A stretch of DNA of 63,187 nt, filler included, from Basidioascus undulatus (Eukaryota): NCBI GenBank assembly GCA_000826855.1. It is 8 parts of 8 records of this genome, joined end to end, with 100 filler letters (N's around TTAATTAATTAA, not from the genome) between each part and the next. Parts side by side here need not be neighbours in the genome. Positions count along the whole stretch, not along the records: positions 15,846 to 23,664 come from JTLS01001486.1; 7 more parts are not named here. The stretch is one strand, 5' to 3'. Positions 7,825 through 63,187 of this stretch are shown in pieces; the first letter of the stretch is position 1; every line of letters starts with the position of its first letter. The notes under the pieces were generated by a model, which was given only the letters and a program-made list of their open reading frames with translations, ran no database searches and was not told where the DNA came from. Position numbers and translations under genes: made by a program.

Positions 7825-7924
7825 NNNNNNNNNNNNNNNNNNNNNNNNNNNNNNNNNNNNNNNNNNNNTTAATTAATTAANNNNNNNNNNNNNNNNNNNN
7901 NNNNNNNNNNNNNNNNNNNNNNNN
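7825..7924. other. Artificial contig-joining linker (N44-TTAATTAATTAA-N44)
   Basis: An identical 100-bp spacer with stops in all six frames occurs 7 times in the window. Confidence 0.99.
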
Positions 7925-15745: not shown

Positions 15746-15845
15746 NNNNNNNNNNNNNNNNNNNNNNNNNNNNNNNNNNNNNNNNNNNNTTAATTAATTA
15801 ANNNNNNNNNNNNNNNNNNNNNNNNNNNNNNNNNNNNNNNNNNNN
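15746..15845. other. Artificial contig-joining linker
   Basis: N44-TTAATTAATTAA-N44. Confidence 0.99.
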
Positions 15846-15929
15846 GAGGACGGCCGGACCCTCTCGGACTACAACATCCAAAAAGAATCGACGCTCCACC
15901 TCGTCCTCCGTCTTCGCGGCGGCCAATAA
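15846..15929 (+). CDS. UBI4: Polyubiquitin, end of the last repeat (5'-truncated)
   Basis: EDGRTLSDYNIQKESTLHLVLRLRGGQ*. A single extra residue after GG is typical of polyubiquitin precursors. Confidence 0.9.
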   Translation, partial: EDGRTLSDYNIQKESTLHLVLRLRGGQ

Positions 15930-16705
15930 TGTAGCCTTGCTTGATCGACTGTTGTTATACCCCACTTGAGCTTGATGCTATCTGCGTCTGTTGCATGTCT
16001 GTCCGCCGGAAATAACATCGCGCTCGCTTCGGCATGTTTGCACATGCCATACTCCTGGCCTCGGAACTATATCGTGCACCAGTGCTCGCGGTGAGGTCTA
16101 CGGAGAAGCTCGGCGAGGCGAAGGAACGACTGCAGACTGCTCAGCGCGGTGAAGGAACGACTGCCATCGCTACCGCGTACCCGTCATCGCAGCTCAACCA
16201 GTTCGCCCAGTGGATTTACATCACGATGTAGATCATGTTGTTCTAACTCCAACCAACTCAGATTGCGTTCCAAAGTGGGGGCGCGGGCGCAGGCGATTTG
16301 CTAGCAGCCTGAGGTGCGGCGAGCCCGGCCGAGGTCGTTTGGCAGAGCCCGGCATCTTCATCTAGAATAAGCTGAGGTTTACTTGGGTCTATTCAGGCAT
16401 AGTTATTATCGCCATCCCTGAGCAGGCTAGAGAGGAGCAAGCGATGGCAGGTTTCCGTCACAGTGGCCGGCGCGGCGCATGCTCACTGCTGCGAACTCCT
16501 GTTATTCCGTGTATCAGCTTGTGAGACGCAGCTTTTCAAAAGTACAGATACCATCTAGATGGCACGGTTGTCAAGCGGTGTTTTCTGGAAATGTCTTGGC
16601 CCGCACGGCGGGAGCGCGCGGAGCGTGGATCGATGCCGCCAGGCAGGTTTCGTTGACCACAGACGCTGCCTTCAAACGACCTTGGACGCTTTGCTTGAGC
16701 GCGTT

Positions 16706-19008
16706 TCATAGTATAAATAAAATTTTGGTGACGTTTACTTTCTTCCACACATTCAATAGGCTCGGTGAACCCACTTGGCATGGAGATGTGAGTTCTGTCC
16801 AGAGGACCTCCCGCCGTGGCAGTCCGATCTGCACACGCTCCAGCTGTGGATTACGAGCCACCGGGTCCTTCACGTCCTTGCGCATGTTTTTGCGCTCGTG
16901 CGTCTTCTCAGCACAGACGACGGAGAGGTGCTTGACCGTCGGTCGAAGCCACTTCAGAAGCGGAACCATCCAAGTGACGACGGTGAGCGAGGCGAGGTTC
17001 GGCGTGCCGAGCGGTCTTTCGCGCCATAAACTTTTCAAGAAGGCCTGCATAGGGTTGATTACGTGGGGCGGTTTGTATCGAGGGCGAGGAACTCATCCCG
17101 CCCTCACGGTGAGGCAAAGGCGTCGAATGTGCTGAAGCGAAGCTGGAGCGCGGACAAGGGCTGTCATAGTGGATGGGACAAACAGCCGAGAGACCCTCTC
17201 GGAGAGAACCTCTCGAAACGTGACCTGCTCCGAAATGTCGATCTCCTCGTACAGCCGCGGTGCAGTGGAGTCGAGGATACCTCTCGCTCTGCCTCCATGC
17301 GCTCCCGCAAAGAAGTGCTCGATGTTCTTGCACGAAGCGTCGTAAGACGCCCCTGCCATGGCGGTGACCAGTTGCTCCAGAGCAGTGCACCAGGGATCCC
17401 CACTCTTGACTACTATCCCCACCGACGGAGAGATGACTGAAATAATAGCGGCTACCGCGTTCCCGTCCGTATCCGATGTATAAGTTACTTCCTGTCGGAT
17501 GCTCCTCATGTAGTTGTGCACCGTGGCTACAAGCTCGACGAAGAACGCTCCCACGACGCGCGGTCCTGTGCGAGACCCAGGCGCCGCGCTGGCGCCTCCA
17601 ATGCTGAGCGCTTGTTCGGCTGGCCACCTCGAGAGAGAGAGCGAGAAAGAGAGCAACTGCATCGCTTCAGTGAGGTTACGCATCTGCTGCTCCATCTGGG
17701 ACATGGCAGCCACTATTCTGCCCATCATGTCACCTTGTGCAGCTGAGGTACGCGTGAGGCTCTGGAGGTATTATTGGTAACCTTGGAGTTACGAACCAGC
17801 CGAGAGAGGAGCATGTGAGTAGTAGCTGATCTGGAGACTGTACCCACCAGCTTGCTTATGAACTCATCTTCACCGCCCGGCTCGTCCTCGACGTCCCCGT
17901 GGACTCGCATACCCTCCAGTTCATCCGCTAGTTGTTCCATGATGCAGGTGGCACCGCAGCAGTAACCTGCCTGTGCTCACTCCTCTCATGACTACCTCTG
18001 GAAGTCGACGTCTCACTAGTTACTCGTTCAGCCATGAGAGGAGAGCGCAGCTCGCCACCGGAGGTCTACTGCGGGATCCACAACCAGAGGACCCCGACCT
18101 GGTCCATCGCCAAAGTCCCCTCTCTACTCTCGACCCAACCTCGGAGTACTACCTCAACACCACAGCCCGCGCGTTAGGGGTGATCGGCGAGGGCCAGGGG
18201 TCGGTTTCGCCCGACTGAAGGTGCGTGTGGACACTCGGCAACTGGGTGTATCCCTCAGGTCTCGCTGTCGCCTGTTCTATGATGCAGCCTTTAGTAATCT
18301 CTGCTAGAGTAAAGATGTAAGGGAAGACACATTCGCTACGCGCAATAGGTGACGAGTTTGTGAGGGCGGGCGCCCAGCCAAGTTCCGTGACTGTGCGAGA
18401 GTATAGGAATTCCTCCCAGGTCCAGGGCAGGCTGTCACTAGCAGCTTAACCAAGCGGCTGTGGACCGTGGGCTGACAACACGCCACCCGAGTGACACTGT
18501 AATGTTCCTCAACATAGGGGGCTCTAAGCTTACCATCTGGCTCCTGTACGAGGGGTATGGCCCCGTCCTCTGCTACCTTGGAATCGACAGCCTCAAGATC
18601 CTCGCGCGTTACCTGCCGCAGGACATACGTTTGATACCCAGTTGGCTAGCAAGAGGGGCTGGCACCTCGTCAGATCCGGCCAATCAGCGTGTGATGCGGA
18701 TTACAGCTACCTCGGGGTGTCGCCGATTGGGAACCTCCAGTTCAATGGCAAGTCCTCAGGGATGACGGGGCTGTACTCTGCCCTCGCATCTGCGATACGG
18801 GCTGCCCTCTCAAGCCAGGGGAGCGGAGCATTCGTGGGAAGCCTGCGAGTTTTAGATATTGACAGAGATAACGAAGCACCTCATCCACAAGCTCCGGGCA
18901 TCGGTCCCAGATGGTCGGGCCGTATGATACACGCCCTCCCTGCCCGCACTCAAACCACGGCTTAAGGTCGCGCCAGGTCCAGAAGTAGGCGGATCGCGTG
19001 GTGGCCAT
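16706..19008 (-). pseudogene. Host F-box-like gene interrupted by the virus-like insertion
   Basis: The 5' part MATTRSAYFW...IWDRCPELVDEVLRYL (19008 to ~18865) resembles F-box helix 1. The 3' part TAPRLYEEIDI...LQHIRRLCL...TPNLASLTV...VKHLSV resumes below ~17265. Confidence 0.5.
17265..18864. mobile_element. Virus/plasmid-like insertion, copy 1 (divergent intronless ORFs X and Y, both disrupted)
   Basis: Homologous to 31973-33550. ORF X starts at 17940 (minus) and ORF Y at ~17988 (plus). It has stops and frameshifts that the other copy lacks. Identity of the source is unknown. Confidence 0.7.
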
Positions 19009-19399
19009 GCGAGATAAATGGCTTGATGGATCTGGTTGGGTGCTGAGAATGCAACTTGTGCAGCCCCCGCCTTTTACATGAGATTTGGCTGTTGTTAGCC
19101 CTCTGCCCATTGATTTATACGGGAATGTGAGGGGATGCAGAACGCTGGCTGCAGCTGGGAATGCAAATGTCGTTCTGGCCCACGCGACGAGCAAACATGA
19201 ACGCAGCGTTCGCAATGATGCTTGCAGCGTGGCGCCCGTTCGCGTGGCCTCAACAGAGCATATCGTTAAAATCCTTCATTTTGATTTTCATTTTGTACAT
19301 TATTTGGTGCGGAAAGCTGCATGCGTGCACTAATGCCGATGTACACCAGCCGTAAGACCTGGGGCCAGCGCAACGCAGGCGTCAACAGAAATGGATCCA

Positions 19400-20600
19400 G
19401 GTCTCACAGTTTCTGGTGGCACCAAGGCCCAAGGTGTATACAAGTGACTCTGCGCTATCAAAAAAAACAGTATACCTCTCGCGGCCAGGCGACGCGATAG
19501 AGGCATGCACCAGAGCGAGGCGAGCCCAGCCTCCGGCTCGGTATTCAGGAGGTCGTTGTTGAGAAGGTAGGTGATGAGGAATCGACCACCACAATCGTTG
19601 GCCGACTTAATCTGCGCCAGGGCCGGGAGACGGCTCTTGATCGAAGGAGCACTCGAACTCTTCGAGAGCATCGCGGCAGCTTTGATCGAACATATCAATC
19701 TTGAACGCGATCCATTCGATAGTGGGATGATGAAAATCATACACGTCAGTGTCGAAAAATTCATCTGGGCAGACCTCGAGGCCCAACAGACACAGGCACA
19801 TGCTGGCCAGTCGGTCGTATGCGATGAGGCCGTCGCCACGTCGAATACGCAAGATGCGCAGCTTTTGACCGATGACGAAAACGAAAAAGAGATGGCAGGG
19901 TCGACGCCGTAAGATCGAGATAAAGCTCCTCCAGCGAAGGAAGCGAGGCTTGTTCGAGGATGGCCAAGATCGCCTCCACAGATGCGTCGTCGTCCTAGGA
20001 GAAGGTGAGCGAACTGAGGAGGGTTACAGAAATACGAGGGAACCGAAGGCTTGTTTGTTTTTTGGCGCTCCCAGTTTGACGTTCAGCTCGTTAAGTGAAG
20101 TGCAACGTGACAAAGTCGAGAAGAGCGCATTTGCAAGCCAGCAATGCTGATGTGAAGGCAACGCAACGAAGAAGCGGTGCAGACTAGCGGTGCGAGTAAC
20201 ACTGGGCTGCAGAACGGCGGCCTGTGAGCGCTGCGTGGGTATAGGAGGAGATCGCAAATGCCTTTGGCAGCGGGCATGACGTGTCCGAGCTGTCCCTCCG
20301 ACACGTCGAACGAGTCGAGGTCGATTGTAGCCATGACCTCTCGAATCCCTCGAACGACGCGCGTCTGGCCTCGCATGGTTCGAAACATGACATGGCCGTG
20401 CAAGCGGGAAACTTTCCGACCAAGCATGTAGAGGTTGTGTAGGAGCAGTGGTGAGGCAAGATCCTGTCCCAGACACGGACGATAGAAGAGTAAGCAGATA
20501 AAGCCTCGCTGGGCGGCCCGAGACGACTTGTCTTCCAAGCTTTGAAGACCAAGACGAGTTTATGAGGCACGTACGGACTAGTGCGCCATCTGTTTGGATA
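19400..20600 (-). pseudogene. Degenerate LRR/F-box-like hypothetical gene
   Basis: Fragments LFSTLSRCTSLNELNV and ILEQASLPSLEELYLDL are separated by in-frame stops. Boundaries are approximate. Confidence 0.3.
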
Positions 20601-21122
20601 CAGGCAGGAGAAGTGATCCTGGACGACATACTCGAAAATCCGCGACTAAACTTCGTTCGGAATTCGATCGAAGGCGGACAGACCCTGCGGCATAGCGATC
20701 GAAAATGAATTGAATGGTGTGCGCGGTAATGGCGTTCGGTACGAGACAGCGTTTGCTGAAAGAATTTAGTGTCGGAAGTGAGAGATGATGGTGGTGGGAG
20801 AGAAGGTGGAGAGGGAGAACACTGCGGGCTTTGACGCTGTAACCCTCGCCCTGAACTCGATGGTTCGATGGACCACCCCTTCAGACGCCATAAAAACAGG
20901 CTTTACCTTCGAAAAAACGCTACTTGTAGAAGATGGTCCTAAGGGAGGTTTGCAGGGACCAGTGTGGCTTCTGCATTCGCACACAAGAAGACGTTGCTGC
21001 AATTCAGCAAAGGTATCTTCTTCATCGGCAATCATCAACCGCCTCCCAAAGCAACAAAGGCAAAAGCCACACAGCACAATTTCCCAAAAGTCTCTAGCAG
21101 CGTCTCTAGCTCCCAAAAAGTA

Positions 21123-23664
21123 TCAGAAGACAAAGTATCCCTTCGCGAGGGGCAACGTCTCCGCGGGCGGCGCGTCGCACAGCTCGCCGTCGGCCGTCAC
21201 CGCGTATGTCTCGGGGTCGACGCGCATCTGCGGCGTCGAGTCGTTGTGCTTCATGTCGCGCTTGCTCACCGTCCGGCAGCCGCGGACGCCGAGCGAGCGC
21301 TTGCGCAGGCCGTAGGAGGCGATCACGCCTGTCCCGCCATCATCGAGATCAACTTCGCTGCTCGTAAGGAAGGAGGTGGAATGTATGGACGGACTGGAGT
21401 CGATCGAGACCTGCGAAACGAAGTTGTACGAGTTGAGCGCTGCCGCGCCGGGGTAGCCGCCGAACATGGGCGCAGAAACGATCGGCTGGATAGTCGGGAT
21501 GGATGCGTTCGCGTCACCGACCTGTACAAGCACAGTTCCAGCTGAAGCATTAGCCTTTGTAGCAATGCAGCAAAGAACGGCAGCGTACACCCGCCCACGC
21601 AATCACTCCGCCCTTGATAACGTTCTCGGGCTTGACGCCGAAGTTCTCGGGCTTCCAGAGCACGAGGTCGGCGAGTTTGCCCTTGACAACGTCCCCGACG
21701 ATGTGCGCGAACCCATGCGTGATGGCCCTGCGTCATTAGGCCTGAAGTTATTCTCACAGTCCCCGCGCCCTGATCCACTGCAAGAAGCGGCGCGCACGGG
21801 TTGATGGCTGTCCTTGTCGAAGTTAGCGACCCGCTTTCTCGATGGGAGGAGCAAAGAAGAGATAGGAGCGCGACGCACTATACTTCGAAACATACCGCTT
21901 CACGCGGAAGTTGTCGTTCGTGGTGTCGTGCGGGGCGAGTGGCCCGCGCACGCTGCGCATCTTGTCTGCCGTGCGCCAGGTGCGCGAGACGACCTCGCCG
22001 ATACGGCCCTGTTGGGGTGCCGTTCAAATGAGATTCAGATGTCATTTGAGATCATCAGTTGCATACCATTGCTTGACTGTCAGATGAGATCATGGAGATC
22101 GCGCCGGTGTCTGTCCGAGGGATCTCTAACAGTCCGCACAGCATAGGGATTGCGAGAAAGCTAATAGCGCACCGTGCAAGACGTCCTCAGCCGCCACCGT
22201 CTCCGCTCGGATGCGCGAGTCGGCAAAAGCGACGTCTGTGCATGTGCGTGCACATCGCGTAAGCCACCAGGTCCATCACTCGTTCGCGAGCCGCACGCAC
22301 CTTCCGGGATCGACTTGTCGAGGTGATGGCAGACCATGAGCATCTGCACAGATTGGGCACGCGTCAGTGCCCACAGCTACCAGTGTGCAAGCTCCGCCCC
22401 TCACGTCCAGGTGCTCGTCGAGCGTGTTGCGCGTGAACGGCCGCGTCGGGTTGGTCGACGAGGGGAGGACGTTCTGCTGCTCGCAGACGACCTGCAGTTC
22501 CGCACATCCGCAAGGTCAGCACCGTATCCCTCGCGCCGGCTCTGCGCTGAGCAGGGCCACGCACGATGATATCCGGCGCGTGCCCGCCGCCGGCGCCCTC
22601 CGTGTGGTACGTGTGGATCGTGCGGCCTTTGAATGCGGCGATGGTGCCTGCAGATAAATTGCGTTGCAGCCCCTCCCATCAGCAGCAGCAAAACGCGAAA
22701 GGACGGGGGATGCGAAACGAAGACGCACTCTCTACGAACCCGCTCTCGTTCAGCGTGTCCGTATGGATGTTGACCTGCACGTCGTACTTGTCCGCGAGGG
22801 TCAAGCAGCTGTCGATCGCCGCCGGGGTGGATCCCCAGTCCTGCGCTCCTCCGCCTCGTGAGAACCCGCTCCCCCTCCTCACTCTTTCCCTACACAAGCA
22901 CCTCATGCAGCTTCAGCCCCGCCGCGCCCGCCTTGACGATGTCCTCCAGTCCCCTCGGGCCAGAGCTGTGCCGCACCGCCCTTCAGCCAACCGTGCGCCC
23001 CTAAGGAGCGGGAGAACGGGATGTGGCGGGGATGGAAGGCGAAAGGGGGAGGGAACGAAGACGCACTCGTTCCCCTTTCCCGTGAACGCAAAGTTCATCG
23101 GGATCCCATCCGTTGCAGCAAACATGTTGTGCAGGTGGTTCTTCCCCGGCGTGCACGTCGTCGCGGCCGTCCCCGCCGCGGGGCCGCCCGTCCCGCCGCC
23201 GATGAGGGTCGTGATGCCGCTTGCCATTGCCTGTTGCACCCCCTCAGTCCTGTCAGCATCGCCCCCCACTCCCCTCAAACAAACGAAGCGGGCAAGAGGA
23301 AGGAAGAAGGAGGAAGGAATGAGGAAGAGGAGGAAGAAAAAAGAACCGCACCTCCTTCCACAGCTCCGGACAGATAAAGTGCACGTGCGCGTCGATAGCG
23401 CCCGCAGTGACGATCTTGCCCTCCCCTGCAATGACCTCTGTGTTGACGCCGACGACGAGCGCCGGGTCCACGCCGTCCATCACGTCCGGGTTGCCCGCCT
23501 TGCCGATCCCCGCGATGTAGCCCTCTTTGATGCCGATATCCGCCTGACCCGGGTTGGAGACGCATCGTTAGCCGTTAGTTGGGGAATTGGGGGGAGGGAA
23601 AGGCAGGGGAGGAGAGGGAGGGAGGGAGAAGGAAGCGCACCGTCTGGACTATAGCTTTGACGCT
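21123..23664 (-). CDS. URE1: Urease (alpha-subunit region of the fused fungal urease), 5'-truncated
   Basis: [86 protein letters not shown]-terminus [12 protein letters not shown]...[10 protein letters not shown]. Confidence 0.97.
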
Positions 23665-23764
23665 NNNNNNNNNNNNNNNNNNNNNNNNNNNNNNNNNNNN
23701 NNNNNNNNTTAATTAATTAANNNNNNNNNNNNNNNNNNNNNNNNNNNNNNNNNNNNNNNNNNNN
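23665..23764. other. Artificial contig-joining linker
   Basis: N44-TTAATTAATTAA-N44. Confidence 0.99.
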
Positions 23765-24002
23765 CCTAGACACCTTGCCTCTCCGCCGCCCCTTCGTCCA
23801 TCCCTCGTTCTTTCACACCTCTACCACACCACTTAGCCACTTCTCCTTTGTGCTTGATTTCCTCCTGTGATGTATACCCGCCGCAACATCCCTTCCCCTA
23901 CCTTTTTACTTTGTTGAACCCCACACCTTCTCCTTCTTACTTTCGCTCGTCTGCTGGGTCTGAATGCACGCACGTTCTATCTGCCGCAGTTGACTGGCTC
24001 GC
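23765..24002 (+). repeat. Inverted copy of the PDB1 stop codon + 3'UTR (partner at 26395-26632)
   Basis: CCTAGACACCTTGCCTCTCCGCCGCCCC... is the reverse complement of 26632 downward. The first ~80 nt are identical and the rest diverges progressively. Confidence 0.92.
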
Positions 24003-24257: not shown

Positions 24258-24329
24258 TTCCCCGTCCGGGAATCGAACCCGGGGCTGGGCGGTGAGAACA
24301 CCCGATGTTAGCCACTACACCAACGAGGA
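24258..24329 (-). tRNA. tRNA-Glu(CTC), intronless
   Basis: Reverse complement TCCTCGTTGGTGTAGTGGCTAACATCGGGTGTTCTCACCGCCCAGCCCCGGGTTCGATTCCCGGACGGGGAA folds as a cloverleaf with anticodon CTC. Confidence 0.93.
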
Positions 24330-26394: not shown

Positions 26395-26632
26395 GCGAGC
26401 GAGACGATTGCGGCAGAGGGAACATGCGTGCATTCAGACCCAGCAGACGAGCGAAATGAAAAGGTGAAGGTGTGGCGGTTCAAAAAAGCAAAAAGGCAGG
26501 AGAAGGGATGTTGCGGCGGGTATACATCACAGGAGAAATCAAGCACAAAGGGAGAAGTGGCTAAGTGGTGTGGTAGAGGTGTGAAAGAACGAGGGATGGA
26601 CGAAGGGGCGGCGGAGAGGCAAGGTGTCTAGG
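26395..26632 (-). repeat. PDB1 3'UTR, partner arm of the inverted repeat
   Basis: See 23765-24002. Confidence 0.92.
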
Positions 26633-31578: not shown

Positions 31579-31678
31579 NNNNNNNNNNNNNNNNNNNNNN
31601 NNNNNNNNNNNNNNNNNNNNNNTTAATTAATTAANNNNNNNNNNNNNNNNNNNNNNNNNNNNNNNNNNNNNNNNNNNN
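31579..31678. other. Artificial contig-joining linker
   Basis: N44-TTAATTAATTAA-N44. Confidence 0.99.
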
Positions 31679-34220
31679 CTCACCAATAGTGGCCGCGTGG
31701 AGGAAGATAGGGACACTCAGTAAGGTGCTGGCAACTCATGGCCAGTGGATCGAGACGAGTGCCCAGCTCGGCACCGACACCGGCTTCTTGCAATCGCTCG
31801 GTATCGACGCGGCCCCTTGGTCCTCAGACACACCTCTCCTCGCCCGGGACCTGGACTGGCCCGCGGAGGAGATTTTGATGAACGACACTCCACTGACGGC
31901 ACACAGCGGAGGGGTATCATACACGCACATGGGGGTATTGATGAAGCTGCAGTCCTTGAGGGACGGGTCAAGTGTCGATGTCTAAAACGCGGAAACTTCC
32001 CACGAACGCCCCACTTCCCTGGCTTGAGAGTGCAGCCCGTATCGCAGACGCGAGGGCGGAGTATAGCCCCGTCATCCCCGAAGGCTTGCCATTGAACTGA
32101 AGATTCCCGATCGGCGACACCCCGAGGTAGCTATAATCTGCGTCACCCGCCGATTGGCCAGATCTGACGAGGTGCCAGCCGCTCTTGCTAGCTGACTGTG
32201 TATCAAACGTGTACCCCGCGGGTAGGTAATGCGCGAGGATCTTAAGGCTGTCGCTATCCCTCGGGTCTCGCTGCCGCCTGTTCTATGATACAGCCTTTGG
32301 TAAGCTCTGCTACAGTAAAGATGCAGGGAAAGACGCACTCGTTACTTACTATACGCGACGAATTCGTAAGGGCGGGTGCTCAGCCAAGTTCCGTCACGGT
32401 GCGAGAGTACAGGAATTCCTCCCAAGTCCAGGGTAGACTATCACTAGCAGCCTATCACGCAGCTGTGGATCGCGGGCTGACGACGCGCCACTCGAATGAC
32501 ACGGTAATGTTCCTCAACATAGGAGGCTCTAAGCTCACCTGGCTCCTATACGAGGGGTACGACCCCGTCCTCTGCTACCTTGGTATCTTAGTTACCGAGT
32601 GTCCACACGCACCTCCAGTCGGACGAGACAGCCCCCAAGCCCTCAGCTATTACCCCTAACGCGCGGGCTATGGTGTTGAGATAGGGCTTTGAGGTGGGGT
32701 CGAGAGTAGAGAGGGGACTTTGACAATGGACCAAGTCGGGGTCCTCCGGTTGTGGACCTCGTAGTAGACCTCCGGTAGCGAGCTGCGCTCTCCTCTCATG
32801 GCTAAATGAGTAACTAGTGAGACGTCGGCCTCCAGAGGTAGTCATGGGAGGAGTGAGCACAGGCAGCTTACTGCTGCGATGCCACCTGCGTCATGGAACA
32901 ACTAGCGGATGAACTTGAGAGTATGCGAGTCCCTGACGAGCCGGGCAGTGTGGACGAGTCCATAAACAAGCTAGTGGGTACAGTCTCCAGATCGGCCACT
33001 ACTCACATGCTCCTCACCCGGCTGGTCCGTAACTCCGAGGTTATCAATCAGCACCTCCAGAACCTCATCGTACCTCAGCCGCACAAGATGACATGATGGG
33101 CAGAATGGTGGCTGCCATGTCCCGGATGGAGCAGCAGATGCATGACCTCACTGAAGCCATGCAGTCGCTCTCCTCCTCGCTGACTCTCTCGAGGTCGCCG
33201 GCCGAACAAGCGCCTAGCATTGGAGGCGCCAGTGCGCGCCTGTGTCTCGCACCGGACCCCGCGTCGTGGGAGCGTTCTTCGTCGAGCTTGTGGCCATAGT
33301 GCGCAACTATATGAGGAGCATCGGACAGGAGGTAAGTTATACATCGGATACAGACGAGAACGCAGTGGCAGCCATCATTCAGTCATCTCTTCATCGGTAG
33401 GGATAGCGAGAGCGGGGACCCTGGTGCACTGCACTAGGGCAGCTCGTCACTGCCATGGCGGGGGCGTCCTGCGATGCTTCGTGCAAGAACATCGAGCACT
33501 TTTTTGCGGGAGCGCATGGGGGCAGAGCGAGGGGTATCCTTGACTCCATGCACTGCTCTCTCGTGAAGTGCAAGGCGACGCTGAAACCCGAGTTCGGCGA
33601 CATCATTGCAGCGCTCGAGTCCCCGTGCGCAGAGGGTGAAGCGCCCAAGCCCAGGTTAGTCCCCAGGGCCCACCAGCACACTGCCCACGAGCTCGCGGTG
33701 TCGAAGCTGAAGCAGAACGACAAGAAAGCAGTCGCCAAGTCCCTCCTCTCGGGGTCGTCCCTAACGCAGGCCCTCGCTGCGGTCAACGAGCAGCCCATCA
33801 AAAAGCAGGCCAAGGTGAAGGATGAACGGATTTTAAATACCGGCCCTTAGATCCGTTCCTTGGAGATCCGTTCCCTAATAAATCCGGCGAGTGCGCTCTC
33901 GGTACTGGCATCGGTGAGGTACCCGATAGGGTTCTCCTCGGGCACGCCCTGCTTGTAGAGGGCCAGCATCTTGTCAGCCGCAGACCCCTTGGCGGTAGCG
34001 GAATTGTTGATGGCATAATCGACGCTCTTGAGAAGGTTAGCGGGGTCGCCCTGATGTATGGCAGGTGTCTCCTCTATGGCATCCCTCAGCACCTTGAGAC
34101 TGGGCATGTCGGACTCCTCTATGAGGCCTAGGCCCTGGCAGGCGGCGCGGCAATTCTGGTTTACCTTCCAGATGGTTAACCTCTTTATATTCTGGCTGAT
34201 GCGAAAGTCCTGCATCTTTC
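31679..34220. mobile_element. Virus/plasmid-like element, copy 2: ORF W(+, to 31985), ORF Y(-, 32845-31968, internally inverted), ORF X(+, 32893-33850, frameshifted), ORF Z(-, 34215-33847)
   Basis: Intronless ORFs on alternating strands with overlapping stop ends and a 47-nt divergent spacer. The central 1.6 kb is homologous to 17265-18864. The element runs off the contig start. No transposase, RT or terminal repeat is visible. Confidence 0.7.
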
Positions 34221-34325
34221 TACTTGCTGGCTAGTGCAAATTACCCTTTCAATCACGAATACATTGTAACGAATAAACACCATCGTCACCTCCCGATGTT
34301 CTGGCAACCGGCGCCAGTGAAAAGC

Positions 34326-34878
34326 TCAAAGTTGGATGGGCTGGAGGGACGCTCAACGTCAGCCAGCCGCTATCTCCCTGCGGTCCTTAGTCGAGTGCGT
34401 TACTTACAGAGCAGCCCAGGTTAATAAGTCCGTTCTGCGTCACATTCTCGCAGCAGACGGGGGCGTTGTTGCAAGTGCCTCCGAGCGCACCGCCAATGAC
34501 CGGCACCTTAGTCAAGACGGACATTATCAGCCTGACAGCCTAGAATGTTAAACCAATTGGCGGCTTTAGCTTACCTGAATGCAGTTCAGGCCGACCTGGC
34601 CAAGGATGCTGCCAACGTTAAGACCGAGGAGGCCGTCGAGGCCGCCGAATACATCGCCGGCGGAGTTGACCGTGTTGCTGGGGGGGGGAAAGTAAGGATG
34701 TCGACAATGAGGCCCAGTCCTATTCAAAGAAGGCAAACTTCTCGCACCAGCAAGAAACCTCCTCGGTGTTGCAACGGCCACCGTCGGCGCGCTTGAGGAA
34801 GTTGTTGGGCTCGGGAGTGGCGGAGACGGTCGCGGCGGCGGCGGCAACGGCAAGGACGGAGAAGACAGCGGTGCGCAT
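34326..34878 (-). CDS. Class I hydrophobin (hydrophobin A)
   Basis: Signal peptide and KR site, then an 8-Cys pattern after splicing: RCNTEEVSCC...[43 protein letters not shown]. Confidence 0.92.
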
Positions 34879-34989
34879 TATGGAAGAAGTGGGTATTGGG
34901 AGACGGGCGCAAGGAAGTATCAGTTGCGTGGAGTGGGAGTGAAGAACAAGTGAGGTGGTGATGGGGAATGATCTGCGCTGCCTGTGGGC

Positions 34990-35001
34990 GGGGGTTTTAT
35001 G
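34990..35001 (-). promoter_or_regulatory. TATA-like box of hydrophobin A (CATAAAACCCCC)
   Basis: Starts 123 nt upstream of the ATG and matches the box of hydrophobin B at 11 of 12 positions. Confidence 0.55.
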
Positions 35002-36287
35002 CACTTCGCAGCGCCGCTCAGAAGTCGCTCCGCCGGCAGTCTCGAGGTGGCCTGAGCCTTAGAATGGAAATGGCGGGTTGTTACAAAATCATAGCCACAG
35101 TAATCATGGAGTAGACCATGTGCGCCTTCGAAAGTCTCGTCCAACTCGTCGATCTCTCCAAGCGTCGATCCACTGCGTTGACTTTCAAGCTTGTCAGCGA
35201 AGTGCGAATGGCGGTACAGCCTCTTTAGCCACTGATGTTCGAGCATACAGGGGTGTTTTACTTTTATTGCGGAGTGGCCCGGTGAAGATCGGCAGAGGAT
35301 GGTAGGAATGCTCTAAGAGGTGGCAAGACGCGATTGAAGTGCAGTCTAGCGAGCACCTAGTCACTCCTCGTTTGGCTCTCACTTCATTTCTCAATTAGGG
35401 TGCCTTTCCGATGCTGTCTATCTTGACTAGCAAGCCGATCATTTCAACGTAAATCTGGATGAAGGCGCACCTTTGTGGACGTTCAGTCTGCCGCTTGTGC
35501 TGGACGGGTCAGCCACCGGCCGCTCCGCTGCTCCGTTGCACTGAACGTGCCGACCCTGCAGGTAATCCCCAGCCATGAAAGGCCACACTCATAAATATGC
35601 GTCCAGGGACTTAGTTTTGCTGAAAGCTCAGAGTAAAAGAAACCTCCGAACTTCTTCTTAGACCGCGTTGGAAGACAGTGGTCACGAATGAAAGCAGGCT
35701 CTCGATAAACCCACTCCTGCGATCCCAATTACCCAAGCTTTGGCCGGCCGCAACTGTGTGCGGAATGAAGGTCTTCTTAGAATTATTACAACCAAGTCCG
35801 CCATTCATGGTCCGCGCTGCAGCCTTCTACGACATCGGGAGTACAAGTCCTGCACATGCGCTCTCGCAAACTTATTGTAGCCTGACGGGACCTAGAGCAT
35901 GAAGGACTTTCAGAGTTTGAGAATCTCAGTTCAAAGCAGATGGCAAACGGCCCACAGCGTTGAAGTCGCTTTTCATCAATGTTCGATAAGCTGCCCCCCC
36001 TCGTAGATCAATAGGTGGCTCAGGTTCCTGAAAAGATGTTTCTAAAATATGCTTATGCCTCAAATCCGGAATCGCATTCTTTGCATATAGAGGCATACAG
36101 CAGCGCAGGTGGCCGTGGTGCTACGCTAGAAGTGGAGCAGACACGCTCGTCTCGCCTCCCCAAGCTATCCTTCGTCTCCATGCTCCATCTCTACTGAGGA
36201 AGCCCACGACTCTTGATCATGAAATCAGTCTTTGTAATCTCTGCACGGCGCCACAGACAAGTTCTGGGGGTGGAGCGGTACCAGGCC

Positions 36288-36299
36288 TATAAAACCCCC
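36288..36299 (+). promoter_or_regulatory. TATA box of hydrophobin B (TATAAAACCCCC)
   Basis: Starts 123 nt upstream of the ATG at 36411. Confidence 0.6.
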
Positions 36300-36410
36300 T
36301 CTACATGTCCAGTTCGAACTCCCCACCAACACGCATCCAACGTCTTCCCAGCCCCCCCCGCCTTGCTCTCCGCTCCAGATCCCACCTAACCCACCTTCCC
36401 TATTCTCAAC

Positions 36411-37018
36411 ATGCGGTCCGCCTCTTTCGCCCTCCTCGCCGTCGCCGTCGCCGCCACTGTCTCCGCCCACCCCAGCTCGGGCAACATCCTCAAGCGCCAG
36501 GACGGCGGGTCTTGCAACACTGACAAGGTTGCGTGCTGGTCAGTTTAGATCCCGTCCATGGGGAAAGCCAGTTAATGTATTGAACTAAGATTTCCTTTCC
36601 AGCAACACTCTCAACGACGCCCCCACTGCGAGCGGGGTGAGGTTCCTTCTCCCATGCCTCTCGTGTAGCCTTGAATCTGACGAGCCTCGTGCATTTGACG
36701 CTCACAGCTTCTCGGCGGCCTTCTTAACGTCGGAAGTGTCGCAGGCCAGGTCGGGTTCAGCTGCGACCAGGTACAGTAACTTGTGTATCTTTTGTTGATG
36801 CAGCACATTGTGCTGACGGACCGACGAATCTCACAGGTGCCCGTAATCGCCGGCGCGGTTTCCGGCCAGTGCGACAGCGCCCCCGTGTGTTGCGACAACG
36901 TCTACCAGGACGGCCTGCTCGGTGTTGGATGCTCGGTGAGTGACTCCCCGATTTACTCCTGACCGAAGATCGTGTGGGGCTGATGGTTTGTCGACGCAAG
37001 CCCGTCCAAATCGCTTAA
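36411..37018 (+). CDS. Class I hydrophobin (hydrophobin B)
   Basis: Signal peptide, then SCNTDKVACC...GFSCDQVPVIAGAVSGQCDSAPVCCDNVYQDGLLGVGCSPVQIA*. It has 8 Cys and shares intron positions with hydrophobin A. Confidence 0.92.
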
Positions 37019-38952
37019 GCACTGGGCTCGCAACCGGCGTCCAGCGCCTTGGGATAATATATTCGGGAAATGTAGGGATGTTTAAGTGAATTGTAACTCT
37101 TGTAGGAACGTATAGCATGGACACAATGCTGCTGGAAAGAGATTTCCTCGGGACAGCTTTGCTGTCATGATCCCCTTGCAATGGTAACTAGAGGAGTAGC
37201 TAATGGTACTTTGGGATAGATATATTTACCGATTATTGGGGCTTCAAACTTCGTTCATGTTTACGATTTCCGTTGGGCAAATGGGAATGCGCCGCTCCTT
37301 ATGAGACTTCGGGCGACATTCGCTTCAGGCCGAGTAGACTGTTGATCTGAATGATCCCATTACCAGAACTTTCTAGAATCTTGGAATGAGGAACAGAACC
37401 AACAGGATGCAGTGGCTTCATGGCTCCCGCGACCTCCTGTGTGAGCTATTGCTAGCAGTGCGCTCTGTCACTTGCTCGCTCACCGCCTTGAGCCCTTGCT
37501 CGTCAGTCCCTCTTCGCGAATCGAGCATGGCTCCAGGTGAGAGTGGCTTGGTTTTGAGACTTAATATTCAGGTGATCAAAGCAGGACTCCTCGAGCATTG
37601 GCCTTACAAGGCTTTGTGAAATTTTTCCTTTGACCTGCGAGATGTGGCGGTGGCCAGCCTATAAGTATTCTCAGTTCAAACACAAAACACTTCGCAAGCG
37701 TCCTGATATTGCTGACTTGCTTACATGCATACAAGGGAGAAAGACGACGGCCCCCGCCCATCGTGCTGTTCACTGCTGTTGTCGTTGTTCGACGGAGGAG
37801 TTTCGACAAGTTTCAGGTGGACGTCGAAGGTATCGAAAGTTCGTCTAATTTGCTCACGCCGCTGACGAGGCGGCCCTCTCTAGCCCTCTCCGACAGTTCC
37901 TGTCGCCCGCGTAAGACCTCTCTGTCTGTACGCAAAAAATGCTAGTAGAGTTGTATGCACTGCAAAGAGAATGCTTCTCTTATTTGTCTCTGTATATCGC
38001 AGAAGAAAATTTTCACGAGAGCTGGTTTAAATTCGGAGGTGGAATGGCGACGAATCCGTACCGACGTTGTGGATTTCACTGCAAAGCGCGACGTCATTTC
38101 GCACCCCCGCGTGCGCGGCTCGTGGCGTCCCGTTGGAGCGCAGAGCTGCTTTTCCGTTGGCGGTGAGCTCCTGGACCGACAAAGGAACGAGGCGCATGAA
38201 GACTCGATAAGTCGAGAGTGAGCGTCGCAATGGGTACGAAAGGACGCGAAGACGGGCGTCGTCGAGCAGAATCAGTGAAAAATGGACTGCATGTGTGCGA
38301 TCAGAAAGGCTAAAAAAGTGGAGGGGCTAGTAATAGTGCCGGAAGGGCATGACGTTGCGACGCGATTGGCCGTGCAGCGTCGGTCACAGTCGCTCGCTCG
38401 CTGCAAAGCCCTGCTCGCTGTCCCCCGACCCGCCCTTGTTCCTTGTATTGGCTGCTCACCACCACCATCGCTCCCCACGCCACCCGCGCCGACGCCCCAT
38501 TCGCCCCTGACGCGCAGTTGGGCTCTTTACGCAACCACCGGCCACAGGCGAGACCCCCAATCTAGAGGTGAGATGGGAGTTTTTTGCTGCGAGAGCGACT
38601 CTGCGATGGCGTTTGTCGCGTGCTTCGCCCGAGGGTCGGCCTTGTATGGAGGGCGTCCCACTGAGGGTGGGCAATTGGCTCGATGCGCGGGCGCTGCCGA
38701 TGTGTAATGCGTATGTGGTGAAGGTGGGCGAGTGAGGTCGCTTGTGACGGTCGTAGGCGCACTCGAGAGCAGCCGGCCCAGGGGCGAGAAGGCGGCGATG
38801 CTGATGCCCCCAACCCAGACGCCTTACAGTGATCGGTTGCCCCCTCCACCGGCAACTTGCGCATCCTACCCATCTCTCTTTACTGACCCCCGCATACTCT
38901 ACTCTCATCAACGCACCATCAACGCCTTCGTCGCACACAGGCGGGCGCAGCG

Positions 38953-39487
38953 ATGGACTTCAGCTTGGCGCCCTCGCGCTCGTCCTCGACCGCCGCCACC
39001 ACCGGGTCCGTGAACCAGCTTACCGACAACCCATCGACCTCCAGCACCGCCTCACCCTCCGAGTCCGACCTCTTCGCCGCCGCGCTCAAGCAGCGCTTCG
39101 GGGAAGGCGCGACGCCCGCCGCGATCGGCACCAGCCGTCGTCCGAGCTTTGGCGAGACCGCCGGCGAGGGCTACTTTGGCTTGCCCACCGCGTCGACGTC
39201 GGCGCCGGGACAGGTGCCACAAACGCCGGGCGCGAGGGGCTTGGGGGCAGGCAGCACGGGCTTGACGCCTGCGTTGGGAGCGCTCGGAAGGCGGAGGAGC
39301 TCAGCCGCCCCATCTCTCGCCCAGATCCCTCCGACCCCGGGCGTGGGCACCGATGGTGCCCCCAACCCTTTCAATCTCTCGCTCTCCTCCGCCTCTACCT
39401 TGGTCCCGACGCTTCCACTCACGCGTTCCGATCGGCCAGCCGCCCCATCTCCCTTCTCTCCCGTACACACCCTCTCCGCCCCACCTC
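38953..39487 (+). CDS. 5' part of an unidentified Ser/Pro/Thr-rich protein, truncated by contig end
   Basis: Open frame with host-like codon usage from ATG 38953 to the contig end. No domain is recognised and the true start may lie upstream. Confidence 0.5.
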
Positions 39488-39587
39488 NNNNNNNNNNNNN
39501 NNNNNNNNNNNNNNNNNNNNNNNNNNNNNNNTTAATTAATTAANNNNNNNNNNNNNNNNNNNNNNNNNNNNNNNNNNNNNNNNNNNN
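39488..39587. other. Artificial contig-joining linker
   Basis: N44-TTAATTAATTAA-N44. Confidence 0.99.
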
Positions 39588-45669: not shown

Positions 45670-47391
<1,722 letters not shown>

Positions 47392-47491
47392 NNNNNNNNN
47401 NNNNNNNNNNNNNNNNNNNNNNNNNNNNNNNNNNNTTAATTAATTAANNNNNNNNNNNNNNNNNNNNNNNNNNNNNNNNNNNNNNNNNNNN
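47392..47491. other. Artificial contig-joining linker
   Basis: N44-TTAATTAATTAA-N44. Confidence 0.99.
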
Positions 47492-55294: not shown

Positions 55295-55394
55295 NNNNNN
55301 NNNNNNNNNNNNNNNNNNNNNNNNNNNNNNNNNNNNNNTTAATTAATTAANNNNNNNNNNNNNNNNNNNNNNNNNNNNNNNNNNNNNNNNNNNN
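55295..55394. other. Artificial contig-joining linker
   Basis: N44-TTAATTAATTAA-N44. Confidence 0.99.
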
Positions 55395-55399
55395 CATAA

Positions 55400-55472
55400 G
55401 CCTCGCTAGCTCAATCGGTAGAGCGTGAGACTCTTAATCTCAAGGCTGCGGGTTCGACCCCCGCGTGGGGCT
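55400..55472 (+). tRNA. tRNA-Lys(CTT), intronless
   Basis: GCCTCGC-TA-GCTC...GAGC-G-TGAGA-CTCTTAA-TCTCA...GCGGG-TTCGACC-CCCGC-GTGGGGC-T cloverleaf, with a T-run downstream. Confidence 0.95.
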
Positions 55473-55649
55473 TTCACTTTTGCTCCTCTCATCCAGTTTT
55501 TACAGGAGACACTGCCGACAGCGAGGCTGGTAGCGTTCACGTTATGTAAGGGGCTGCACTGGTCCCCGCAACACTTTCGCACTCCGCAAACTTGGCAGCC
55601 GACTTCGCCGCCTTTCATCGCACCACAGCAACTTCACCTCAGAATCACT

Positions 55650-62630: not shown

Positions 62631-63090
62631 CAGCTGCAAGTTCGCTCGGAGAGCACCTGAGAACTGCGTGTTTGTGGAGAGAGCATTTTTACTGTTCTTT
62701 CGCGGTGAATGACGATCGATCTTCTGCCTGTGTCAACAGGCGGTCATACAATCATCGACAATCATGTGCGGTCCAAGCGCGGGAGCACGATCATGTAGCT
62801 CGAGAGGGGGATACTTAGAGAGTGGGGAATATTGGATGATGAGCGTGAGCGTGGGCATTGGACGAATCTGAGGACTCCGATGAGTAACTAGCGATGCAGC
62901 ATTGTGTGTTCCTCCTGTATTGCGGTTGAGTAAGTACAGCTGTGTTCGTGGCTCAGGCACAGAAGGACGACTAATGGGAGTCCCCTCCGGCAGAGGCAGT
63001 TAGGATGGGACTCAGGAGGGATGCATTTTGAATGCGGTGTTCTGCAGCTCCCAGGCCGGCAATCAAGAAAGTGGATGACCGACACAAAAA

Positions 63091-63163
63091 AGCCCCACGC
63101 GGGGGTCGAACCCGCAGCCTTGAGATTAAGAGTCTCACGCTCTACCGATTGAGCTAGCGAGGC
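63091..63163 (-). tRNA. tRNA-Lys(CTT), identical to 55400-55472
   Basis: Exact reverse complement of the first copy, followed by a T-run terminator on the minus strand. Confidence 0.95.
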
Positions 63164-63187
63164 TTGTATTTTTCGTCCAAGTTTTCA

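Follow-up and report, generated by a model that had tools for sequence, protein, structure and literature searches.

What kind of sequence leaves behind, in the genome of a fungus, diverged and separately broken versions of the same pair of protein-coding genes? The question arises from a 63,187-base stretch of Basidioascus undulatus DNA (assembly GCA_000826855.1; hereafter the window), in which a 1.6-kb segment at 17266-18864 (copy 1) is related to a segment at 31973-33548 (copy 2). An earlier note on this DNA had proposed that the two segments were integrated separately, from two variants of an agent that was replicating with functional proteins. Our analysis suggests that both are probably decayed members of a lineage-specific multi-copy repeat, with a mobile element of unknown class as its most likely nature. 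As we reconstruct it, the element would comprise at least two intron-less protein genes, X and Y, reading outward from a conserved 47-bp spacer. Purifying selection would have retained both of them in the propagating lineages, and copies issued from different lineages would have landed at different loci before decaying neutrally and independently.

The window is composed of eight pieces, apparently contigs from a fragmented assembly, ordered by falling length (7,824 down to 7,793 bases). Copy 1 lies inside piece 3 (15846-23664), and copy 2 (31973-33548 and beyond) inside piece 5 (31679-39487), a different contig. As the pieces are separate contigs, the spacing and relative orientation of the two copies carry no meaning, and their apparently inverted relation is arbitrary. 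The copies are ~ 87.5% identical overall and align in three blocks: block A (17266-18248 with 32588-33548; 847/960 identities), block B (18249-18585 with 32255-32587; 286/333) and block C (18586-18864 with 31973-32252; 242/279). On either side, the unique flanks of copy 1 are unrelated to those of copy 2, with local alignment scores below the shuffled maximum. The two stretches are thus members at two loci with unrelated flanks, as a dispersed repeat family would show. A tblastn search of the window with pieces of X, Y and a neighbouring open reading frame (ORF), Z, found no third copy.

Two outward-reading ORFs make up the homologous segment. In copy 1, the remnant of ORF X (17266-17940, minus strand) starts with an ATG at 17940 and is cut at 17266 without a stop codon, and the remnant of ORF Y (17988-18864, plus strand) starts with an ATG at 17988 and ends two codons before the position of copy 2's stop. 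Their start codons are separated by the 47-bp spacer (17941-17987). ORF X of copy 2 runs from ATG to stop (32893-33850, plus strand), its last 100 codons (33549-33850) being missing from copy 1. ORF Y of copy 2 is found in three open parts: 85 codons from the ATG (32591-32845, minus strand), a middle part of 111 codons lying on the strand opposite to the rest of the gene (32255-32587, plus strand), and a C-terminal part of 94 codons followed by a TGA stop (31968-32253, minus strand). Beyond this end, copy 2 runs off its contig at 31679. The earlier proposal that merging the copies rebuilds continuous ORFs of ~ 290 (Y) and ~ 320 (X) amino acids stands for Y, which is open in each of its three copy 2 parts and has a length of about 293 amino acids in our reconstruction. 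Only ~ 225 codons of X lie within the homologous 1.6 kb, and the length of about 320 amino acids is reached with the further 100 codons of copy 2. Both reconstructed ORFs are intron-less.

The divergence between the copies bears a strong protein-coding signature. Ratios of non-synonymous to synonymous divergence (dN/dS), calculated by the Nei-Gojobori method with bootstrap intervals, gave 0.09 in Y and 0.19 in X rather than values near 1. For Y, 283 comparable codons (68 synonymous and 29 non-synonymous codon differences) give a dS of 0.519 and a dN of 0.049 (dN/dS 0.094, bootstrap 0.06-0.137). For X, 206 comparable codons (37 synonymous and 28 non-synonymous) give a dS of 0.342 and a dN of 0.064 (dN/dS 0.186, bootstrap 0.111-0.312). 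Both intervals exclude 1. The 26 synonymous and 7 non-synonymous differences counted by hand over ~ 93 codons in the earlier note become 24 and 6 over 82 codons (18618-18864) in our recount, and the third-position bias that it described extends to the comparable parts of both genes, with differences at codon positions 1/2/3 of 17/15/83 in Y (chi-square p 8e-18) and 9/19/44 in X (p 1e-6). Expressed as rates, first- and second-position differences amount to ~ 5.5% in Y and 6.6% in X, and third-position differences to 29% and 21%. The low rates at the first two positions cap any joint neutral phase of the copies, which implies that most of their divergence arose under selection. The accumulation of most X/Y divergence under purifying selection is therefore supported.

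The coding frames had been assigned knowing where the differences lay, and all six frames were scored as a control in each of five sub-blocks. A low dN/dS together with the absence of shared stops was observed in the assigned frame only. The mirror antisense frame, whose third positions coincide with those of the assigned frame, also showed a low dN/dS but contained 1-2 shared stops in every block, and the other four frames gave ratios of 0.8-13.9. Length changes agree with this picture, since those that keep the frame (12 nt and 3 nt between the copies, and +3 nt in each of the high-depth versions described below) fit frame maintenance among members. The spacer, with 43/47 identical positions, is more conserved than the synonymous sites and thus also looks constrained. 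Furthermore, as copy 1 is a fragment in which both ORFs are cut at the ends, selection must have acted before this fragment reached its locus.

None of the 12 disabling lesions (seven in copy 1, including two truncations, and six in copy 2) is common to both copies. Copy 1 carries two nonsense codons, three frameshifts and a truncation at both ends. In its ORF Y, a TGA at 18216-18218 and a TAA at 18318-18320 stand where copy 2 reads TGG and CAG, one extra base is found near 18448 and one base is lost near 18615; in its ORF X, one nucleotide is lost between 17769 and 17770. Copy 2 has no nonsense codon in X or Y across the parts comparable with copy 1. Its ORF X is interrupted by frameshifting deletions of 1, 1, 1, 4 and 1 nt at copy 1 positions 17753, 17584, 17440, 17409-17412 and 17396, and has lost a further 12 nt in frame relative to copy 1. 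The privacy of the lesions claimed in the earlier note, including its TGA/TGG and TAA/CAG pairs and a separate frameshift early in X for each copy (the 1-nt losses at 17769/17770 and 17753), is hence confirmed, with zero shared stops in the coding frames. The sole lesion of ORF Y in copy 2 is a 333-nt inversion (32255-32587) relative to its own flanks. As the frame of copy 1 is unbroken across both junction sites, the order in copy 1 is the original one. The junctions show a few filler bases and a 5-nt loss, so that the inversion looks like a break-and-rejoin event rather than a programmed switch.

Contigs of three public runs (X1, X2 and X3, the library type of the last being guessed only) were placed on positions 16600-19500 at a likeness of at least 80%, and reveal a larger family. 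The flanks of copy 1 have depths of 43-52 in X1 and 17.5-19.5 in X2, corresponding to single-copy sequence, and the element stretch itself is covered by 50 and 51 contigs, respectively. At position 18728, for instance, another letter is found in 8 X1 contigs and 6 X2 contigs. Such numbers of contigs and variant letters indicate a family well beyond two members, far more than the two copies described in the earlier note. The 1.6-kb segment does not hold as the unit either. Contigs that pass 17266 and 18864 go on with the flanking sequence of copy 2 and not with that of copy 1, and where other members extend beyond 17266, their 30-nt continuations agree with copy 2 from 33549 onward. Since copy 1 is outrun at its two ends by copy 2 and by other members, the unit must be longer than 1.6 kb, and copy 1 represents an internal piece of it. 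Several distinct loose ends were also observed among the family members. Examined as a potential dispersed repeat, the family consists of members at unrelated loci with differing end points. The joints of the copy 2 inversion (18243 to 18585 and 18249 to 18627, on opposite strands) were found in X1, X2 and X3 at approximately single-copy depth, and their recurrence in all three runs shows that the inversion is real. Besides, over 17266-17600, contigs with the private deletions of copy 2 reach about twice the depth measured for the copy 1 flanks in the two DNA runs (89.5-94.4 for flanks at 43-52, and 40.7 for flanks at 17.5-19.5). The locus of copy 2 may have been duplicated recently, or the two nuclei of a dikaryon may differ.

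The same runs contain a version of the repeat at much higher depth. X2 contigs with depths of 406-473, against flanks of 17.5-19.5 (21-27x), cover 17266-17732, 17781-18259 and 18449-18864. In X3, all of copy 1 is matched in order by one contig of 4589 nt (contig positions 2542-4144), which has a depth of 317.8, the other members having depths of 3-9. No high-depth contig covers 17279-17500 in X1, where a record filter makes such gaps uninformative. The 4589-nt contig differs from copy 1 by 264 substitutions and by only six gap letters, which undo the three frameshifts of copy 1 and add one codon. These three frameshifts are also missing from all the other contigs covering the places concerned. 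Where the earlier note suggested looking for an intact or high-copy episomal version, public contigs thus show a high-depth version free of copy 1's frameshifts.

Searches for relatives of the encoded proteins included two further ORFs bordering the genes of copy 2. ORF W (31680-31985, plus strand) is open to the contig start and convergent with Y, with a 3' overlap of ~ 15 nt, and ORF Z (33847-34230, minus strand; 127 codons) is convergent with X, their stop codons sharing two bases. Both may be additional genes of the element; for Z, a host exon is another possibility. Against Pfam, 13 pieces of X and Y gave one chance match (E 0.13) at E up to 1, 41 ORFs of at least 80 amino acids from copy 2's contig gave no mobility or replication domain, and W, Z, the tail of X and its N-terminus gave no match at E up to 10. 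Over the X/Y pieces, the 41 ORFs, W, Z and the X tail, this includes the absence of any Pfam match to the domains of LTR (long terminal repeat) retrotransposons (reverse transcriptase, RNase H, integrase, protease) and to the DDE or other transposase domains of terminal-inverted-repeat transposons. Word-index searches of 5.8 billion proteins returned no homologue for 168 amino acids of X and for the last 94 of Y, and a phmmer search with only the first 153 amino acids of Y against 1.84 billion protein representatives returned 0 matches. X and Z had no match among PDB sequences and no usable match in the ESM Atlas. Relatives were found among IMG/VR viral contigs for 0 of 3 queries (the C and B parts of Y, and X). 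Some weak resemblances were considered and rejected as chance. The best PDB match of the B part of Y, a designed PPR protein (E 7e-4), contained no single stretch that passed alone, and a match of the C part to the C-terminus of vesivirus VP1 (E 0.07) was composed of two overlapping, non-colinear stretches with individual E values of 7 and 600. Likewise, four loci from a scan of JGI metagenomes were attributed to chance: the one inspected belongs to a prokaryote-like contig and was matched in a frame that is not coding, and the matches at the remaining three are shorter. AlphaFold2 models of X (168 amino acids, 4-row alignment; pLDDT 45.6) and of the Y N-terminus (153 amino acids; pLDDT 34.6) were too poor for a fold search. 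No significant hairpin was predicted in the spacer region (DNA fold of 17920-18010, -9.9 kcal/mol, z -0.01 against shuffles), and the third-position GC content of X and Y codons is similar to that of host ORFs.

Several of these observations count for a mobile element, namely the unique flanks of copy 1, unrelated to those of copy 2, the ORFs cut at the fragment ends, and the intron-less structure of X and Y compared with the short introns of the one host gene checked, which encodes a MOZ/SAS histone acetyltransferase. Mobility, the descent of dead copies from live lineages, and any role for X and Y are our inferences. Other points weigh against this reading. A transposase, reverse transcriptase, integrase, recombinase or replication domain was not found in the ~ 2.7 kb seen, the unit measuring at least 4.6 kb, of which about 1.9 kb on the X side falls outside the window. 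The window, which probably does not contain the true ends of the element, also yielded neither LTRs nor terminal inverted repeats nor target duplications. Apart from the copies themselves, no long direct repeat was detected in copy 2's contig or across the window. To our knowledge, fungal transposons are not known for two genes arranged head-to-head at a distance of 47 bp. In addition, contig depths are not copy numbers, and the copy-number estimate is a sum of depths; the 40 of 396 substitutions consulted do not tell whether the high-depth version carries stop codons; and a comparison of two sequences does not polarise the direction of changes.

On its X side, the extent of copy 2 is bounded by a gene at about 34390, the first of two intron-split class I hydrophobin genes (34390-34880, minus strand, and 36390-36960, plus strand; Pfam PF01185, E 2e-9 and 3e-7). 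The DNA of these two genes is 71-73% alike and forms an inverted repeat (34572-34858 / 36428-36773). Around copy 1, a minus-strand ORF with an ATG near 19010 (18865-19011) enters the element at 18864, and protein-like frames are found below 17265 (16709-17265, minus strand), so that a host gene may surround copy 1. One motif in this region is reminiscent of F-box proteins. The interruption of an F-box-like host ORF by copy 1 was considered and not retained, Pfam giving no match and the window containing no paralogue.

An ordinary gene neighbourhood, with copy 2 only ~ 0.5 kb from two members of a family known for duplication, is what could be expected if X and Y were instead a head-to-head pair of host genes. 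These would belong to a paralogous family expanded by segmental or tandem duplication and perhaps amplified as an array, and the copies in the window would have been recently pseudogenised, their divergence dating from the time when functional paralogues evolved under purifying selection, with nothing mobile involved. The host-like third-position GC content and the failure to find a mobility enzyme, terminal repeat or target duplication fit this explanation, and the high depth could correspond to a tandem array. However, a doubly truncated 1.6-kb fragment embedded in single-copy flanks, as is copy 1, is hard to produce by segmental duplication of a working locus. X and Y are intron-less although the genome has short introns, the end points of the members differ, and no homologue was found elsewhere for the parts searched (the first 153 amino acids of Y, 168 of X and the last 94 of Y). 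We therefore regard a host gene family as rather unlikely.

Alternatively, the copies could be chromosomal fragments captured from an extant extrachromosomal DNA agent resembling a plasmid or a virus, or from an agent with a DNA stage, the high-depth version being this agent. The relative depth of this version is uneven across runs (21-27x the flanks in X2, 318 against 3-9 in X3), copy 1 resembles a captured internal fragment, and the layout is compact, the spacer measuring 47 bp and the convergent genes of copy 2 having overlapping stop codons. The basic, probably disordered N-terminus of Y, followed by strands predicted in a model of very low confidence, might also suit such an agent. Against these points, no replication, capsid or polymerase family was matched, IMG/VR contained relatives for 0 of 3 queries, the spacer lacks an origin-like hairpin, the composition is host-like, and collapsed repeats or an array explain the high depth equally well. 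An episomal origin consequently appears distinctly unlikely. The bolder version of this idea is similarly improbable in our view: the high-depth version would be a living, self-amplifying or extrachromosomal fungal agent of an undescribed kind, compact and at least 4.6 kb long, with intron-less genes on alternating strands encoding proteins for which no relatives are detected. Chromosomes would occasionally capture pieces of it, and copies 1 and 2 would be fossils from different strains of it. Finally, it is scarcely credible that the signal is artefactual, arising by chance or through errors of assembly or alignment (for example an inversion put together wrongly, or post hoc choice of frames). 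Such doubts might be raised by the fragmented assembly with its contigs of ~ 7.8 kb and by the assignment of frames with knowledge of the differences. Yet contigs from two studies show the two copies again, and likewise the joints of the inversion, the six-frame control singles out the assigned frames, and the position biases have p values of 1e-6 and 8e-18.

Other features of the window lie apart from the repeat. Its pieces are joined by seven N44-TTAATTAATTAA-N44 linkers (7825-7924, 15746-15845, 23665-23764, 31579-31678, 39488-39587, 47392-47491 and 55295-55394), and a 7.9-kb 'periodic repeat' returned by the repeat search was rejected as these linkers between contigs. The MOZ/SAS histone acetyltransferase gene that served as a marker of host gene structure (45673-46976, minus strand; Pfam E 3e-29) has several short introns. 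Urease exons occupy about 22400-23600 on the minus strand (Urease_alpha N-terminal domain, E 7e-14, and Amidohydro_1), and a match to Rfam '5_ureB_sRNA' at gathering score (23351-23597, plus strand) overlies one of them, probably through similarity to the coding sequence, and was not retained as a small RNA. In piece 4, a 144-nt inverted repeat (23859-24002 / 26395-26538) with 83% complementary arms 2.4 kb apart possibly represents the terminal inverted repeats of another element, and a tRNA-Glu (24258-24329) lies between its arms. Two tRNA-Lys(CTT) genes with equal scores (55399-55473, plus strand, and 63090-63164, minus strand) stand in inverted orientation 5 and 24 bases from the ends of piece 8. 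The pair may reflect a true inverted duplication, or else the way in which contig ends were assembled.

Returning to the repeat, which we read as a probable mobile element, the core of the earlier interpretation is retained: the copies diverged under selection and then decayed independently. The separate integration of a functional replicating agent is the part that does not follow, as the source may be a transposon or other chromosomal repeat, or a host family or array. Divergence under selection followed by independent decay is in itself the textbook footprint of mobile elements and viral fossils, and is not surprising. The element is an unclassified two-gene repeat that is apparently still abundant. 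What makes it noteworthy is a constrained protein-coding repeat in a fungus, whose searched pieces match nothing in the collections covered and whose visible part contains no recognisable mobility enzyme. Should the high-depth version prove to be an episome, or a transposon that is active and belongs to a new class, it would provide a handle on undescribed fungal mobile DNA; if it were a host gene array, the finding would be ordinary.

Comparison with known systems places the repeat near several types of elements. The literature on them includes PMC4482050 for PIF/Harbinger-type transposons, PMC3198968 for endogenous copies of circular Rep-encoding viruses in eukaryotes, and PMC13756089 for totivirus-like and other non-retroviral RNA-virus insertions in fungi. 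Transposons of the PIF/Harbinger type have two genes, encoding a DDE transposase and a Myb-like partner. Such elements share with the repeat a two-gene unit a few kb long and ORFs of roughly 300 amino acids. Unlike them, X, Y, W and Z have no DDE or Myb-like match in Pfam. Circular Rep-encoding single-stranded DNA (ssDNA) viruses provide a second parallel, as they have two ORFs of ~ 300 amino acids diverging from a short intergenic region. Their endogenous forms resemble the repeat in these two divergent ORFs and in independent integrations with later decay. The repeat differs from them in having no Pfam match to a Rep (HUH), superfamily-3 helicase or capsid domain at E up to 1, no stem-loop in the spacer, and a unit of at least 2.3-4.6 kb extending beyond both ORFs. 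Insertions of totivirus-like and other non-retroviral RNA viruses in fungi likewise consist of intron-less, virus-type ORFs carried on the host chromosomes, and dN/dS serves to trace their past. Here, by contrast, no RNA-dependent RNA polymerase or coat protein was matched, the ORFs lie on opposite strands, and the high-depth version is present in apparent DNA contigs.

A further parallel is offered by subfamilies of transposable elements. Under the master-copy or lineage model of such subfamilies, synonymous sites account for most of the differences between copies that stem from distinct active lineages. The repeat departs from them in its two or more orphan ORFs, of which X and Y are arranged head-to-head, and in that no transposon-class enzyme, terminal repeat or target duplication was seen. 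It resembles them in the way its members have aged, each copy having its own stops, frameshifts, truncations and rearrangements, with varied end points across the family and one abundant, intact-looking version among them.

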